DNA from: Nitrosotalea sp. | GTDB lineage: Archaea > Thermoproteota > Nitrososphaeria > Nitrososphaerales > Nitrosopumilaceae | DNA length: 64,000 bases | Direction of reading: 5' to 3' | NCBI GenBank assembly: GCA_029850515.1 | Contig: JARCRW010000017.1 | Span: 8,591 to 72,590 of the forward strand | Shown: one piece after another, positions 4,462 through 44,680 of the stretch | Layout of the letters: each line of letters begins with the position of its first letter | How positions within the stretch are numbered: position 1 is the stretch's first letter | Notes under the pieces: generated by a model | What the model was told of the DNA's origin: nothing | Database searches by the model: none | What the model saw: the letters and a program-made list of their open reading frames with translations, nothing else | Made by a program: the position numbers and the translations under genes

Positions 4462-4504
4462 GCAAGCTACATTTAATTGCATCAAGAATTTAGGCGTTAT
4501 TTAT

Positions 4505-4598
4505 GCCGGGGTAGCTCAGCCTGGCCTAGAGTGCCAGTCCATACAAAAGGGTAATACTCATAATCTGGAGGTCGTGGGTTCGAAACCCACCCCCGGTA
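4505..4598 (+). tRNA. tRNA-Met(CAT), probably elongator, with an 18-nt intron at 4538-4555 (position 30/31)
   Basis: Acceptor GCCGGGG/CCCCGGT and T-arm GTGGG-TTCGAAA-CCCAC. Removing 4538-4555 restores CCAGA-CTCATAA-TCTGG. BHB-like junction (TGCC/GGTA helix with two 3-nt bulges). No A1-U72 or GGG/CCC, so not the initiator; tRNA-Ile2 is not formally excluded. Confidence 0.92.
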
Positions 4599-4784
4599 TA
4601 CACCGTTTTGCTCAATGCCTTTGAGCGTGTTTTGAGGTATTTGAGCCAGGATTACTTCAAATCTCATGAAATTATCAGTTTATGACCATGGCAGGATCAA
4701 AAATAAAAACTCCTAACCAAAGAGCGTTCACAAAAACAGCATTTGTGAAACATTAAAAGATCAAAGGCCTGCGCATTAGGTAAG

Positions 4785-15342: not shown

Positions 15343-16341
15343 CTATTCTTCAGGCTCTTCCTTCTTTTTCTTCTTTGTCTCATCTTCTGGGTCTGCAACA
15401 CCACCTTCAGTTAGTGTGTAGAGAACCTCCTGTTCTGGATGGTGAGGACTATCGACCATTCTGGCAATTCTCTTCTTACCTGATTTCTTGAGATAAACAC
15501 GGTATGTTGAGGCATGCGCTACAACGTTTCCTCCAACAGGTCTTGTCGGATCACCAAAGAATTGGTCAGGCGATGACTGGACTTGGTTTGTAGCTATTGC
15601 TGCCACATTATATGTTTCAGCAGTTCTTGAAAGCAGGTGCATGAATTTGTTTAATCTCTGTTGTCTTACAGAAAGAGTGCCTCTGCCAAGGAATTCCGCT
15701 CTGAAAAGTCCTACTGCAGAGTCTACAATAATTAATTTTATTTTGTTTTCTTCAATTACAGGACCTGCTTCTTGTAAGATCAACTCCTGATGAGCACTAT
15801 TGTATGCTCTTGCTACCATAATTCTGTCAAGAACCTTTTCTGGATCAAGACCCTTTGCTTTTGCAATTGAAACAATTCTTTCAGGTCTGAATGTATGTTC
15901 AGTGTCTATATACAGCACCCCACCGTCTAGTCCACCTTCTTCTTTTGGCTTTTGAACAGTTACACATACTGTGTGACAAAGTTGTGTTTTGCCAGCACCA
16001 AATTCACCATAAACCTCCGTTATAGCTTGTGTCTCAATTCCTCCATCAAATAGAGTATCAAGTGCGTTAGTTCCGGTTGTGATCTTTCCAATATCTTGTC
16101 TTCTTTTATAGATCTCAGTTGCTGAGACAAATTCTTTAGCAATTTGACCGTTATCTATTAGCTGTTGTCTTGCTTTGTTTACTAGATTTACAGCAGCATC
16201 AAGATCCATACCAGTGATTTCTGATATGTCTACTGGTCCTCTTACAACAAGATCCAATATGTTATGGATTCCTGCATCGCTTAGCTTCTTGGAAGTTACT
16301 GGGCCTACCCCATCTAGATTTTCTAATCTTAAATCGTCCAT
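15343..16341 (-). CDS. radA: DNA repair and recombination protein RadA
   Basis: N-terminal HhH (LDGVGP), GEFGAGKTQ Walker A, YIDTEHTFRPER, IIVDS, GGNVVAH, ARMVDSP. Confidence 0.97.
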   Translation of the reverse strand: MDDLRLENLDGVGPVTSKKLSDAGIHNILDLVVRGPVDISEITGMDLDAAVNLVNKARQQLIDNGQIAKEFVSATEIYKRRQDIGKITTGTNALDTLFDGGIETQAITEVYGEFGAGKTQLCHTVCVTVQKPKEEGGLDGGVLYIDTEHTFRPERIVSIAKAKGLDPEKVLDRIMVARAYNSAHQELILQEAGPVIEENKIKLIIVDSAVGLFRAEFLGRGTLSVRQQRLNKFMHLLSRTAETYNVAAIATNQVQSSPDQFFGDPTRPVGGNVVAHASTYRVYLKKSGKKRIARMVDSPHHPEQEVLYTLTEGGVADPEDETKKKKKEEPEE

Positions 16342-16343
16342 CT

Positions 16344-16376
16344 TACCGTATGGTACAGTACTAGTACCTTATAAAG
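16344..16376 (-). promoter_or_regulatory. Putative radA promoter (TTTATAAG) with GTAC-rich palindromes between TATA and start
   Basis: Minus-strand TTTATAAG at 16369-16376, about 30 nt upstream of the ATG; perfect palindrome GTACTAGTAC at 16358-16367. Confidence 0.5.
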
Positions 16377-16479
16377 GAATCCTTTGATGGAACTGTTACC
16401 TTATAGGTTGTTTTTTTTACTATTAATTTTAGTTGGTGGGTCAATTGATGTTAGATACTGACAAATTATGAAAAATATG

Positions 16480-16587
16480 TTACTCTTTTCTTTTAAGAAC
16501 AAAGAAACAGATCGTTATTGCTACTGACACAATTCCATAAATAATGTAATTCCCATTACGAGTCCACCAAAGATCCTGTGCATTCAT
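16480..16587 (-). CDS. 35-aa single-pass membrane microprotein (not in ORF track)
   Basis: Hand translation MNAQDLWWTRNGNYIIYGIVSVAITICFFVLKRKE: one TM helix followed by KRK. Confidence 0.5.
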   Translation of the reverse strand: MNAQDLWWTRNGNYIIYGIVSVAITICFFVLKRKE

Positions 16588-16800
16588 AGCGATATAATCT
16601 ACGGCATCATGAAAAATCAAGTTACAATTATTAAATTAGAATCAGATTTAGGATTTACTTGTATTTTGTACTAGTGCAATTCATTTGTTTAGACTTGAAG
16701 GATGTTTCTATTTCCAAGACAAAAAATAGACAATTTTTTTATTTATAATTCCAGTAACATAGTTAATCGAGTCTTTTATACGGCAAAAACCAATTACGAG

Positions 16801-16876
16801 TGGAACCGTGGATGTGTCTTCCTAGTGCACGATCACACCATCACTATGACACAAGTCCCTAATATCCACGGTTTCA
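16801..16876 (+). ncRNA. Candidate structured RNA / long hairpin 1
   Basis: TGGAACCGTGGATGT (16801-16815) pairs with ATATCCACGGTTTCA (16862-16876), 15 bp including 2 G-U; inner helices TGTGTC/GACACA and TAGTG/CACTA; TTTTATA at 16774-16780 upstream. Confidence 0.4.
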
Positions 16877-16993
16877 TTGTGCTTATTTTATAGCAGATAC
16901 AACCATGACGCGGTATTAATTCATCAAGACATATTTGCCAGTTCAAAATGAACGAACACATTCTTTTCAATGTATGCCACATAGTAAATAATG

Positions 16994-17056
16994 CAGATTC
17001 TATACTGGCGGTGGTTCTTTTGGGCTCAACCCCAAAAGAGCAACCGCTAGAATCTG
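16994..17056 (+). ncRNA. Candidate structured RNA / long hairpin 2
   Basis: CAGATTCTA/TAGAATCTG, GCGGT/ACCGC and GTTCTTTTGGG/CCCAAAAGAGC give about 25 bp with one G-U, one mismatch, a 5-nt bulge and a 6-nt loop; followed by T7 at 17061-17067. Confidence 0.45.
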
Positions 17057-17182
17057 ATAATTTTTTTATTTACAAAAGACCAGTTTTGCAGTCATATCGA
17101 TAAACTATCAACAAGGTTCTCAGACAGATTAAACATAGAAAATCAATGATTTTATAGGTAAATACAGATAACTTGCAAAATT

Positions 17183-17362
17183 CTACTTTCTTCTTCGTTG
17201 ACCGGGTTTGTTTTGGCCTGGGACTCTTTTTAGGATGAATCTTTTTCTAAAATTATCCTTGTTTCGTGTAATGGATATTGTTCCATGTCTTTCCCGTGAT
17301 GGAACTTTAGGAGTTTGTCCTCTTACTTTTCCTGCTTTAGTAAGCGATCCGTGAGTTGGCAC
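17183..17362 (-). CDS. rps30e: 30S ribosomal protein S30e (59 aa, below the ORF-track cut-off)
   Basis: Hand translation from GTG: MPTHGSLTKAGKVRGQTPKVPSRERH...RRRK, with the diagnostic HGSLxKAGKVRxQTPKV motif. Confidence 0.96.
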   Translation of the reverse strand: MPTHGSLTKAGKVRGQTPKVPSRERHGTISITRNKDNFRKRFILKRVPGQNKPGQRRRK

Positions 17363-23940: not shown

Positions 23941-24009
23941 TTCCAGTTTGGAAGCAAATTACATTGTAATATCATACAGTATAGACCCTAATTTCCGAAT
24001 CGGAAATTA
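23941..24009. promoter_or_regulatory. Two palindromic operator-like sites TTCCR-N3-YGGAA, centres 52 bp apart
   Basis: TTCCA-GTT-TGGAA (23941-23953) and TAATTTCCG-AAT-CGGAAATTA (23989-24009, perfect 9-bp arms) in the divergent promoter region of the Lrp-GAF gene. Confidence 0.6.
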
Positions 24010-44231: not shown

Positions 44232-44283
44232 GGAACGTATTGGGATTTCTTTTGGCTACATTTAGAAAAAGAAGAAAAATGTA

Positions 44284-44427
44284 CTAAGGCTTTCCTATTC
44301 GGAAGACATTAGTACCACATTTTGGGCACACGCCCTTGACCGCAGGTCGTCCGTTCTTTAGCTTAACTTCCTTTGGGTTTGAGATATCGACTTTTTTTCT
44401 GCATTTTACGCAGTATGCTTGAGTCAT
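44284..44427 (-). CDS. DUF5679-type 47-aa zinc-ribbon protein (not in ORF track)
   Basis: Hand translation MTQAYCVKCRKKVDISNPKEVKLKNGRPAVKGVCPKCGTNVFRIGKP. Confidence 0.88.
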   Translation of the reverse strand: MTQAYCVKCRKKVDISNPKEVKLKNGRPAVKGVCPKCGTNVFRIGKP

Positions 44428-44680
44428 TTCAACTTCTTACGAATGAAGTGGTATATAGCAAGACGCTGTAAAAATTATTTCACTATACACTAGAGGGTGT
44501 TAAATTTTTACATGGTCTAATTCAGATCATAGATCCAGTTTTTACATAAAAATATGTGTTTTTATGATATTTCTTATGAGTAAAGGATTCAACGCCATGA
44601 AATTAACAAATTGACCAGAAGAATAATCAAATTGTTGAATGTAGGTATGCTTTTAAAAGCCCCAAAAAAGACTCATCTGA

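Follow-up and report, generated by a model that had tools for sequence, protein, structure and literature searches.

Intergenic small RNAs (sRNAs) that carry their own BRE/TATA promoter and end at an oligo-U terminator have been catalogued in Haloferax, Methanosarcina and Sulfolobus (PMC4152357), and U-tracts are described as archaeal terminators in another study (PMC8716108). The locus described here lies in a window of 64,000 nucleotides, the whole stretch of DNA that was analyzed, from Nitrosotalea, an acid-loving ammonia-oxidizing archaeon. It contains two hairpin units, HP1 and HP2, which resemble the catalogued intergenic sRNAs in that they stand alone between protein-coding genes, have a TATA element 21-22 nt before the predicted start and a terminal T-run, and are predicted to give structured, one-lineage RNAs of 70-90 nt. 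The TATA/BRE promoter distance and the downstream oligo-T of both units are those used as generic marks of archaeal sRNA genes. The units differ from described archaeal sRNAs in having no sequence or Rfam relationship to them, and HP1 also differs in that a single long hairpin makes up nearly all of it and leaves no single-stranded end free as a seed. Ammonia-oxidizing archaea drive nitrification in acid soils; to our knowledge, almost nothing is known about regulatory RNAs in this group, and we know of no functionally studied sRNA from it.

We consider it probable that the locus contains two independent small non-coding RNA genes, arranged in tandem on the plus strand at the rps30e edge of a strain-variable island. 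By sequence, HP1 and HP2 are most likely candidates for two new genus-restricted small-RNA gene families. The split into two units is based on about 40 related loci from Nitrosotalea relatives; 229 stretches passed a tblastn check and 80 loci were kept. The features of the locus are as follows:

15343-16341, minus strand: radA, the far border of the strain-variable gap, 99-63% identical among the 80 loci kept
16746-16773, plus strand: upstream promoter box of unit 1, ATTCCAGTAACATAGTTAATCGAGTC, which hardly varies among 30 copies
16774-16780, plus strand: TATA box of unit 1, TTTTATA, invariant in 30 copies
16781-16800, plus strand: variable 20-nt spacer of unit 1
16801-16876, plus strand: HP1, a 76-nt imperfect hairpin identified by fold and conservation, with predicted transcription start site (TSS) G16802 (T/G initiator)
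16883-16891, plus strand: T-rich stretch after HP1, TTATTTTAT, a putative terminator
16934-16971, plus strand: 38-nt upstream box of unit 2, TTTGCCAGTTCAAAATGAACGAACACATTCTTTTCAAT, which holds the TATA-like CTTTTCAAT at 16963-16971
16972-16992, plus strand: variable spacer of unit 2, poorly conserved between lineages
16993-17056, plus strand: predicted HP2 hairpin RNA (hairpin 16994-17056, 25 pairs, -35.9 kcal/mol, z = -7.55)
17061-17067, plus strand: T7, the oligo-T of unit 2 and its predicted terminator; T6-T9 in all copies found
17183-17362, minus strand: rps30e (Pfam Ribosomal_S30, E = 4.7e-10), the convergent neighbor

Among the related loci, the gap between rps30e and radA can be as short as 90 nt or exceed 3 kb, and the locus marks it as a gene-turnover hotspot in the family. 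HP1 is positioned at the edge of this hypervariable island, which in relatives contains fragments of IS6-type (rve_3) transposases. According to the synteny table of related loci, rps30e is the sole gene constantly adjoining HP1, and in loci without HP2 its 3' end is located about 100 nt downstream of HP1. No protein family common to all HP1 loci was found in the 3 kb upstream.

The promoter region of unit 1 is sharply delimited. Within the upstream box, GTTAATCGAGTC (16762-16773) is invariant, and the sequence further upstream is unrelated from lineage to lineage. The TTTTATA box, to which a first-pass annotation of this DNA had drawn attention together with a start just downstream of it, is present and lies about 21 nt upstream of the predicted TSS; with its flanking C's it makes up a nine-base element, CTTTTATAC, that ends (C16781) 21 nt before G16802. 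A TATA element occurs at a comparable distance in the four tRNA genes of the window (in tRNA-Thr, CTTTTTATAA). The spacer differs between lineages at up to about 9 of its 20 positions, the pattern expected between a TATA box and an initiator.

The HP1 hairpin consists of three helices, P1 (13 bp), P2 (GUGUC/GACAC) and P3 (UAGUG/CACUA), with an 11-nt 3' bulge (AAGUCCCUAAU), an internal loop (UUCC/U) and a 14-nt apical loop (CACGAUCACACCAU). Its minimum free energy is -25.1 kcal/mol (z = -3.75, with 0 of 200 shuffles folding as well), compared with z = -2.32 on the minus strand. The hairpin at 16801-16876 had been proposed earlier with a 15-bp outer stem, of which 13 pairs are conserved and the two outermost fall in variable sequence. 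Its limits coincide exactly with an invariant block, T16801-A16876, in 30 related copies from genomes and metagenomes. Only four sites vary among these copies (16822 C/T, 16823 T/-, 16828 C/T and 16864 A/G), the last of which converts a pair into a U-G wobble. By comparison, third-codon identity of the flanking genes is 74-80% in HP1-bearing genomes, so that neutral sites differ by 20-26%, and this rate predicts about 17 changes per genome pair in 76 nt. Recent transfer does not explain the invariance, because the upstream spacer and the downstream sequence are highly variable. The stems are as invariant as the loops. HP1 is under very strong purifying selection across all 76 nt. Support for its structure is limited to thermodynamics and two wobbles, namely G16803-U16874 and the A-to-G change at 16864, both of which pair on the plus strand only; the 30 copies show one wobble change and zero compensatory double changes.

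The T-rich stretch at 16883-16891 is probably a terminator, possibly a leaky one. A T-run is found 2-12 nt past HP1 in all lineages, with varying sequence (TTGATTTTTTTG, TCTATTTTTATG, ATTTTATTTTAG, TTTTTTACC and others), and the 3' flanks of HP1 read UUGU, AUUU, UCUA or UCAA across lineages.

In unit 2, the upstream box is conserved in 13 HP1-bearing loci and retains 75-80% identity in six genomes without HP1. Its TATA-like CTTTTCAAT is weak, with an internal C or G, and ends 22 nt before a conserved T/G at 16992/16993, a geometry comparable with that of the tRNA genes in the window. Hairpin 2 (16994-17056, about 25 bp) and the T7 run had both been recognized in the first-pass annotation, and both are present. 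The hairpin has a base stem, CAGAUUCU/AGAAUCUG, a 5' bulge that begins with UAUAC, and an upper stem of 17 pairs closed by a 6-nt loop.

HP2 keeps its structure through compensatory change. All 16 variants adopt one shape with 24-28 canonical pairs, and most upper-stem pairs differ in sequence between the groups with and without HP1 while pairing is kept, at 25-28 pairs in the group without HP1. At one position of the base stem, 10 sequences have a U-A pair and 6 a C-G pair, alifold detects double changes at 6 of 19 pairs, and, as read from the pair lists, the upper stems of loci L012 and L015 show six differences that all stay paired via G-U. With regard to the covariation suggested earlier as a check, HP2 shows compensatory changes, and double changes are absent from HP1. 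Formal covariation is weak for HP2: within its window-like group, column-based covariation does not exceed shuffles, as MAFFT shifts the register at a compensating UUUU/AAAA versus UUU/AAA indel. The fixed parts of HP2 are the base, the UAUAC bulge and the tail only.

It had also been observed that deviations in both long stems are mostly G-U on the plus strand, and this is correct for the relatives as well. HP2 is 3.9-14.8 kcal/mol more stable on the plus than on the minus strand (z = -8.3 and -8.9 versus -4.3 and -5.8), where the long helix is lost. This strand asymmetry, with G-U pairs and a better plus-strand fold in every copy, favors the plus strand.

Expression was assessed on assembled contigs of metatranscriptome-labelled runs, and no such run shows HP1 or HP2 above the neighboring genes. 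The run with the highest HP1 depth (X31), although labelled as a metatranscriptome, has even, DNA-like coverage over the whole locus; in the remaining runs HP1 lies at low depth, no higher than the neighboring genes. Four libraries with uneven, RNA-like coverage contain no HP1 contig and a single 2.6x contig over 16928-17071, in which the presumed HP2 promoter box is included. Where contigs start at 16801-16803, the start coincides with the variable spacer and may be an assembly break-point. Run searches listed no pure-culture Nitrosotalea transcriptome.

The alternative that HP2 acts mainly as a hairpin-plus-U7 terminator or insulator is unlikely in our view. It would protect rps30e, and in relatives an 82-aa membrane-protein gene, from antisense plus-strand transcription arriving from HP1 or the divergent promoter region of radA. 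HP2 has the shape of an intrinsic terminator, its stem sequence varies freely with shape alone being kept, and it faces convergent genes at every locus. As in bacterial intrinsic terminators and the 3' module of Hfq-type sRNAs, a long G+C-richer hairpin is followed by U7. The best Rfam match in 16300-17250 is likewise a terminator-bearing leader, Bacteroid-trp (RF01692), the alignment of which spans exactly the HP2 hairpin and tail at 34.6 bits, under the 49-bit threshold; other matches have E > 3. However, HP2 has no upstream ORF or Trp-codon leader, and the hairpin is essentially the entire predicted RNA. Its host is archaeal, where a hairpin is not needed for termination: a U-tract alone suffices (PMC8716108). 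Hairpin-type terminators are not enriched in the genome (14 found versus 12.1 expected). In addition, the 38-nt box 22 nt upstream is conserved along with the hairpin, even after the island has parted HP2 from radA, and the whole unit is tandemly duplicated in locus L066.

The first-pass annotation had proposed a candidate RNA of about 260 nt, or else paired hairpin elements. In this form, one RNA of about 265 nt (approximately 16802-17067) would have hairpin 1 as its 5' domain and hairpin 2 as its terminator, which we regard as quite unlikely. The fold check that it had called for, on both strands against shuffles, gives z = -4.86 for the 276-nt stretch on the plus strand and -3.95 on the minus strand, and the cDNA contig mentioned above takes in the box upstream of hairpin 2. 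In the window and its nearest HP2-bearing relatives (loci L001, L089 and L095), HP1 is followed by just T4, which makes read-through plausible. Nevertheless, the two units are separable, each having its own box and its own T-run. HP1 occurs without HP2 in 17 of 30 loci, where T5-T7 follows it directly and rps30e comes next, whereas HP2 occurs without HP1 in six other Nitrosotalea genomes (L012, L013, L015, L044, L064 and L066), where it lies about 100 nt from radA. Both units are present in Ca. Nitrosotalea devanaterra Nd1 (genome LN890280, locus L005). Between the hairpins, positions 16892-16933 lack conservation and are rich in indels. The small stems proposed there, GTTCA/TGAAC and ACATT/AATGT, exist in the window and are lost in relatives, in which the sequence reads TTTCAAAATAAAC in one group and AATGT becomes AATAC in others; judged from these changes, they are probably not RNA structure. 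With two separate genes, the weak T4 run would still allow some read-through into HP2, giving a species of about 265 nt.

It is improbable that the units act at the DNA level, as a protein-binding palindrome, a cruciform, an attachment or recombination site of the island, or a replication-related site. The position of HP1 at the edge of an island with IS6-type fragments in relatives would suit such a site, as would the fact that its stems never covary, and its arms vaguely recall what we take to be archaeal origin-recognition boxes. On the other hand, the stem imperfections are all G-U on the plus strand and would be A-C mismatches on the minus strand, a bias that argues against a DNA palindrome because DNA pairing favors neither strand. 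The arms of HP1 are no more invariant than its asymmetric interior. A transcription unit fits both the TATA box, which is invariant, and the T-run, which is always there, and in HP2 the stem sequence changes while pairing stays. Furthermore, GC-skew shows no turn at the locus within the 64-kb window. Origin-of-replication, dif and K-turn readings were dropped by inspection.

A non-autonomous mobile element, either a MITE or a relic of an IS200/605 end, had been offered as the alternative to an RNA and is very improbable. The long inverted repeats and the variable region with transposase remnants are shared with MITEs and IS200/IS605 terminal hairpins, L066 carries HP2 twice, and in assembly X40 the HP2 box joins four contigs, which suggests that it is present there in two copies. 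Unlike these elements, however, HP1 and HP2 are single-copy in the window and fixed in position, HP1 always beside rps30e, with purifying selection, strand-specific G-U pairs and no target duplications seen. In X40, HP1 is single-copy because it is unbroken within a 49-kb contig. The flanks diverge like neutral DNA, and the core is fixed. Covariance models of HP1 (R1) and HP2 (R2), run over 0.57-0.73 Mb of related loci, found no further copies or homologs outside the close Nitrosotalea set, apart from a weak chance-level R1 match at 23941-24005 and an R2 match in L036 with E = 0.32. Among viral contigs, the HP1 core has 0 matches and a 17-mer of the HP2 box has three chance matches inside unrelated sequence; phage and plasmid collections give no blastn match to either unit.

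Small proteins are hardly credible products of the locus: ORFs of 63 aa (16702-16893), 51 aa (16948-17103) and 16 codons (16812-16862, inside HP1) exist and have similar counterparts in L002 and L005, yet they have no Pfam matches, the 76 + 19 invariant nucleotides contain zero synonymous-type substitutions and the changes seen are non-synonymous, about half of the copies carry a 1-nt deletion at 16823 that disrupts all frames through HP1, and the frame across HP2 differs in L005.

Comparison with known RNA classes gave no assignment, in agreement with the earlier statement that no tRNA, C/D or H/ACA pattern is recognizable. In Rfam 15, no family reaches its gathering threshold in 16300-17250, and in the window only the four tRNAs do so. 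Despite the 76-nt length of HP1, neither ARAGORN nor RF00005 calls a tRNA at 16801-16876. The units are similar in size to H/ACA and C/D guide sRNAs and likewise have a hairpin with internal loops, and Nop5 and fibrillarin are encoded in the same window. In contrast to H/ACA sRNAs, there is no ACA/ANA box after the HP1 stem in any lineage, and what would be the pocket is closed by pairing of its two sides (GUGUC/GACAC). Inspection led us to reject box H/ACA, with no conserved ANA 3' of the stem, self-complementary pocket strands and no tandem G-A pairs. Box C/D was likewise rejected by inspection: RUGAUGA and CUGA are absent on the plus strand, the minus strand has GUGAUGG-like strings and no CUGA, and the tandem G-A pairs of a kink-turn are absent. 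A comparison with Y RNAs shows no sequence likeness of HP1 or HP2 to what we presume to be the Ro-binding helix. The literature on Nitrosotalea and Thaumarchaeota sRNAs yielded nothing on either element.

The reading that emerges from these comparisons as the best one, a plus-strand small RNA preceded by a TATA box and ending in oligo-T, is that of the first-pass annotation with two units in place of one. Both genes would share a common layout. A conserved box has a TATA-type element (CTTTTATAC or CTTTTCAAT) at its end, and 20-22 nt of unconserved spacer separate it from a conserved T/G initiator, after which come the hairpin and oligo-T. The predicted HP1 RNA would extend from about G16802 to about 16890 (roughly 85-90 nt), and the predicted HP2 RNA from about G16993 to 17067 (roughly 70-75 nt). 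Both may be stable trans-acting RNAs, protected by their long terminal stems and U-tails, and the U-tail may be bound by an Sm-like protein.

The two RNAs would be recognized in different ways. Since the stems of HP1 are as invariant as its loops, a protein partner or several RNA partners probably recognize its specific sequence along the length of the RNA, with the 11-nt bulge, the UUCC loop and the 14-nt apical loop as the likely exposed contact surfaces. This complete sequence constraint points to a specific molecular partner. A target search in the window for complements of the bulge and the apical loop found nothing beyond chance. HP2, fixed in nothing but its base, UAUAC bulge and tail, is probably recognized by shape.

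If expressed, HP1 and HP2 add two RNA families missed by current annotation pipelines. They are two concrete candidates for experimental tests, one an invariant 76-nt hairpin and the other a hairpin kept by compensatory evolution. It can be speculated, with little probability, that they are members of a broader, so far undescribed class of promoter-hairpin-U-tail mini-genes at the edges of variable or mobile islands in ammonia-oxidizing archaea, HP1 being the RNA subunit or ligand of a protein, with a role in island maintenance, in defense or as a translation decoy. The idea of a decoy for the translation apparatus comes from the HP1 apical loop, GAUCACACC, which loosely resembles what we take to be the 16S 3' end, GAUCACCUCC.

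The window is from a genome of Nitrosotalea, a member of the Nitrosopumilaceae that is acidophilic and oxidises ammonia. Its RadA shares 95-99% identity with the RadA proteins of Ca. N. devanaterra and Nitrosotalea MAGs. The gene order rSAM-rps30e-gap-radA-L21e is kept family-wide, with a radical-SAM (rSAM) gene beyond rps30e in the window. The rps30e-radA gap varies in size from ~90 nt to >3 kb across Nitrosopumilaceae (L001-L080, the related radA loci) and in relatives holds fragments of IS6-type (rve_3) transposases as well as unrelated small ORFs, thus representing a gene-turnover hotspot. In the window, the gap spans 840 nt and contains two units that most likely represent two new, genus-restricted small-RNA gene families:

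15343-16341, minus strand, radA, gap border
16774-16780, plus strand, TATA box TTTTATA of unit 1
16801-16876, plus strand, hairpin of unit 1 (HP1)
16934-16971, plus strand, conserved box of unit 2
16994-17056, plus strand, hairpin of unit 2 (HP2)
17061-17067, plus strand, T7 following HP2
17183-17362, minus strand, rps30e (Pfam Ribosomal_S30), gap border

All sequence features listed in the first-pass annotation were found in the window. A blastn search of the 80 radA loci, combined with a scan of metagenomes for a 20-mer taken from HP1, identified 29 copies besides that of the window. The block T16801-A16876 is identical in 30 of 30 copies except at four sites:

16822, plus strand, C/T
16823, plus strand, T/absent
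16828, plus strand, C/T
16864, plus strand, A/G

The limits originally drawn for this hairpin are exactly those of the conserved block; two extra outer pairs fall in variable sequence. Upstream of HP1, GTTAATCGAGTCTTTTATA (16762-16780) is invariant and ATTCCAGTAAC nearly so, the 20-nt spacer separating the TATA box from HP1 differs between lineages at up to ~9 positions, and a T-run is located 2-12 nt 3' of HP1 in every lineage, in otherwise unrelated sequence (TTGATTTTTTTG, TCTATTTTTATG, ATTTTATTTTAG and TTTTTTACC; TTATTTTAT in the window). At third codon positions, radA, rps30e and the rSAM gene in the same genomes are only 74-80% identical to their counterparts in the window; over the 76 nt of HP1 this predicts ~17 neutral differences per pair, as against 0-3 observed. 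HP1 is under extreme sequence constraint, and recent horizontal spread is excluded as a cause of its invariance, since the spacer and flanks are variable. The promoter geometry of HP1 (TATA element, ~21 nt spacer, T/G initiator) includes a TATA element at a distance comparable to that in the four tRNA genes of the window, of which tRNA-Thr has CTTTTTATAA. G16803-U16874 forms a G-U pair on the plus strand and an A-C mismatch on the minus strand, and the A-to-G variant at 16864 likewise changes U-A to U-G on the plus strand and yields an A-C mismatch on the minus strand. A protein-coding role for HP1 (a 63-aa ORF and a 16-codon ORF inside it) was rejected, because the 1-nt indel at 16823, which distinguishes roughly half of the copies, breaks every frame and the few substitutions are non-synonymous.

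HP2 follows HP1 in 13 of the 30 HP1 loci; in the other 17, the end of rps30e comes ~100 nt after HP1 and its T-run. Six Nitrosotalea genomes with ~95% RadA identity (L012, L013, L015, L044, L064, L066) possess HP2 without HP1, ~100 nt from radA and divergent to it, and the unit is tandemly duplicated in L066 (3231-3407, 3484-3627). Its conserved parts are a 38-nt box ending CTTTTCAAT or CTTTTGAAT, the hairpin bases (5' GCAGAYUCUAUAC, 3' GARUCUG) and the tail UNAUUUUUUU, and its variable parts are a 22-24 nt spacer and most of the upper stem. All 16 distinct HP2 sequences share one shape, in which the base stem measures 8-11 bp and the upper stem 17-19 bp, the 5' bulge begins with UAUAC and the loop has 4-7 nt, and 24-28 canonical pairs are kept though most upper-stem pairs differ in sequence between two groups. 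HP2 is under structural constraint. With regard to the covariation check proposed in the first-pass annotation, compensatory change is seen in a base-stem pair that is U-A in 10 sequences and C-G in 6, and RNAalifold counted six pairs with double changes even though MAFFT had aligned the sequences without regard to structure; a column-wise count within the window-like group gave no excess, a compensating indel (UUUU/AAAA versus UUU/AAA) shifting the MAFFT register. In pair lists read by eye, the upper stems of L012 and L015 differ six times, and pairing is preserved by G-U each time. The plus strand is more stable than its complement by 3.9-14.8 kcal/mol in every variant, and the complement of the L012 hairpin no longer forms the long helix at all (z = -8.3 on plus versus -4.3 on minus). 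With only its base, UAUAC bulge and tail fixed, HP2 may be an RNA whose shape is what is recognised; a live alternative is that it serves as a terminator or insulator towards the convergent genes. In L005 (704-952, plus strand), L012 and L015, HP2 and rps30e are separated by an 82-aa membrane-protein ORF whose last codons (NKIKK) are encoded by an A-run complementary to the HP2 U-tail; this gene is lost from the window (17068-17182).

The region had been proposed to encode a single ~260-nt RNA. However, the units occur independently, each with its own conserved box and T-run, the inter-unit segment 16892-16933 is unconserved, and relatives do not retain the small stems proposed within the HP2 box; therefore, two genes are the best reading. 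Some read-through from HP1 to T7 after HP2, giving a joint transcript, is possible, as the HP1 T-run in the window is only T4. The original interpretation is partly supported: the evidence favours an undescribed small RNA on the plus strand and does not support one RNA or a mobile relic.

As compared with shuffled controls, the 276-nt stretch folds better on both strands (z = -4.86 on plus, -3.95 on minus). HP1 alone (16801-16876) folds at -25.1 kcal/mol (z = -3.75 on plus versus -2.32 on minus) and hairpin 2 (16994-17056) at -35.9 kcal/mol (z = -7.55). The Rfam scan of the region identified no family, the top sub-threshold match being Bacteroid-trp (34.6 versus 49 bits), in which hairpin 2 and its U-tail align against a terminator, and ARAGORN called no tRNA there. 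By the tests applied, neither unit belongs to an Rfam family or to the tRNA, H/ACA, C/D or MITE classes, in agreement with the initial failure to recognise a tRNA, C/D or H/ACA pattern. Elsewhere in the window, a 96-nt tRNA-Tyr call (4504-4599, plus strand) is presumably intron-bearing, and its ARAGORN anticodon, 'ata', looks like a mis-parse around the intron.

The two conserved units are separable, have promoter-like and terminator-like framing, and both favour the plus strand. We infer that they are transcribed into U-tailed hairpin RNAs of ~85 nt (HP1) and ~72 nt (HP2). In their behaviour, both candidates resemble the intergenic sRNA genes that stand alone in other archaea (review PMC4152357), and their T-runs fit archaeal U-tract terminators (PMC8716108). 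HP1, being ultra-conserved, is the more intriguing unit. Since stems and loops are equally invariant in HP1, it would probably be read sequence-specifically over its whole length, either by a protein or by multiple RNA partners, which fits better than a simple antisense seed; the predicted exposed parts are an 11-nt bulge AAGUCCCUAAU, a UUCC loop and a 14-nt apical loop. A target search for HP1 within the window found none, and no protein gene within 3 kb upstream is consistently linked to HP1 loci.

Transcription was assessed from Logan contigs. In X31, the run labelled as a metatranscriptome with the highest HP1 depth, radA, rps30e and the rSAM gene have the same flat, DNA-like depth, and in other runs HP1 is at low depth, no higher than neighbouring genes. 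Four patchy, RNA-like libraries contain neighbouring mRNAs of relatives and lack HP1; RNAs <100 nt are usually lost from such metatranscriptome libraries, and many soil relatives do not possess HP1. In the same four libraries, a single contig (2.6x) spans 16928-17071 and takes in the presumed HP2 promoter box. Contigs that start at 16801-16803 do so where the hypervariable spacer lies, and these starts may reflect assembly break-points.

A purely DNA-level palindrome is argued against by the strand-specific G-U pattern in both units, by the asymmetric yet invariant interior of HP1 and by the promoter-terminator framing; GC skew has no turning point at this position in the window. The suggested MITE or IS200-605 relic is not supported: neither unit has a second copy in the 64-kb window, and covariance models of both, run over related loci totalling 0.57-0.73 Mb, found no further copies. 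Searches of viral, phage and plasmid collections yielded three chance 17-mer matches and nothing else. A weak match to the HP1 model (23941-24005, plus strand; 17.3 bits, E = 0.4), probably due to chance, is located in the divergent promoter of an Lrp-GAF regulator and shares AGNCCCUAAUNUCC with the HP1 bulge region. In assembly X40, HP1 is single-copy, as it lies within an uninterrupted 49-kb contig and has the same depth as its surroundings. The HP2 box of X40 joins four contigs of equal depth, suggesting two HP2-type units in this organism, the second with a different hairpin (...GTTCTCAGGGTTAAAAGCCCCCAGAA). Together with the L066 duplication, HP2-type units may form a small paralogous family.

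A 16-nt inverted repeat at 44461-44518 (88% complementary, arms 26 nt apart), within a 450-nt gene-free stretch (44232-44680), could be another hairpin element. Several 80-125-aa protein families without an assigned function are located in the rps30e-radA gap of relatives; two of them, a 94-aa family (MGDSEKL...) and a 118-aa family, resemble paralogues with ...LKEV..Y..V..I in common. In the window, a 46-aa ORF (MIFHDAVDYIAMNAQDLWWTRNGNYIIYGIVSVAITICFFVLKRKE; 16480-16620, minus strand) with a C-terminal membrane helix and basic tail, which had no match in a Pfam search and is kept only in the two closest relatives (80% in L001, 87% in L004), could encode a small membrane or toxin-like peptide. 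Finally, the radA 5' leader/promoter region (16342-16418) is 74-84% conserved far outside the genus, in dozens of loci from Nitrosopumilaceae, suggesting that radA has a conserved regulatory element upstream.
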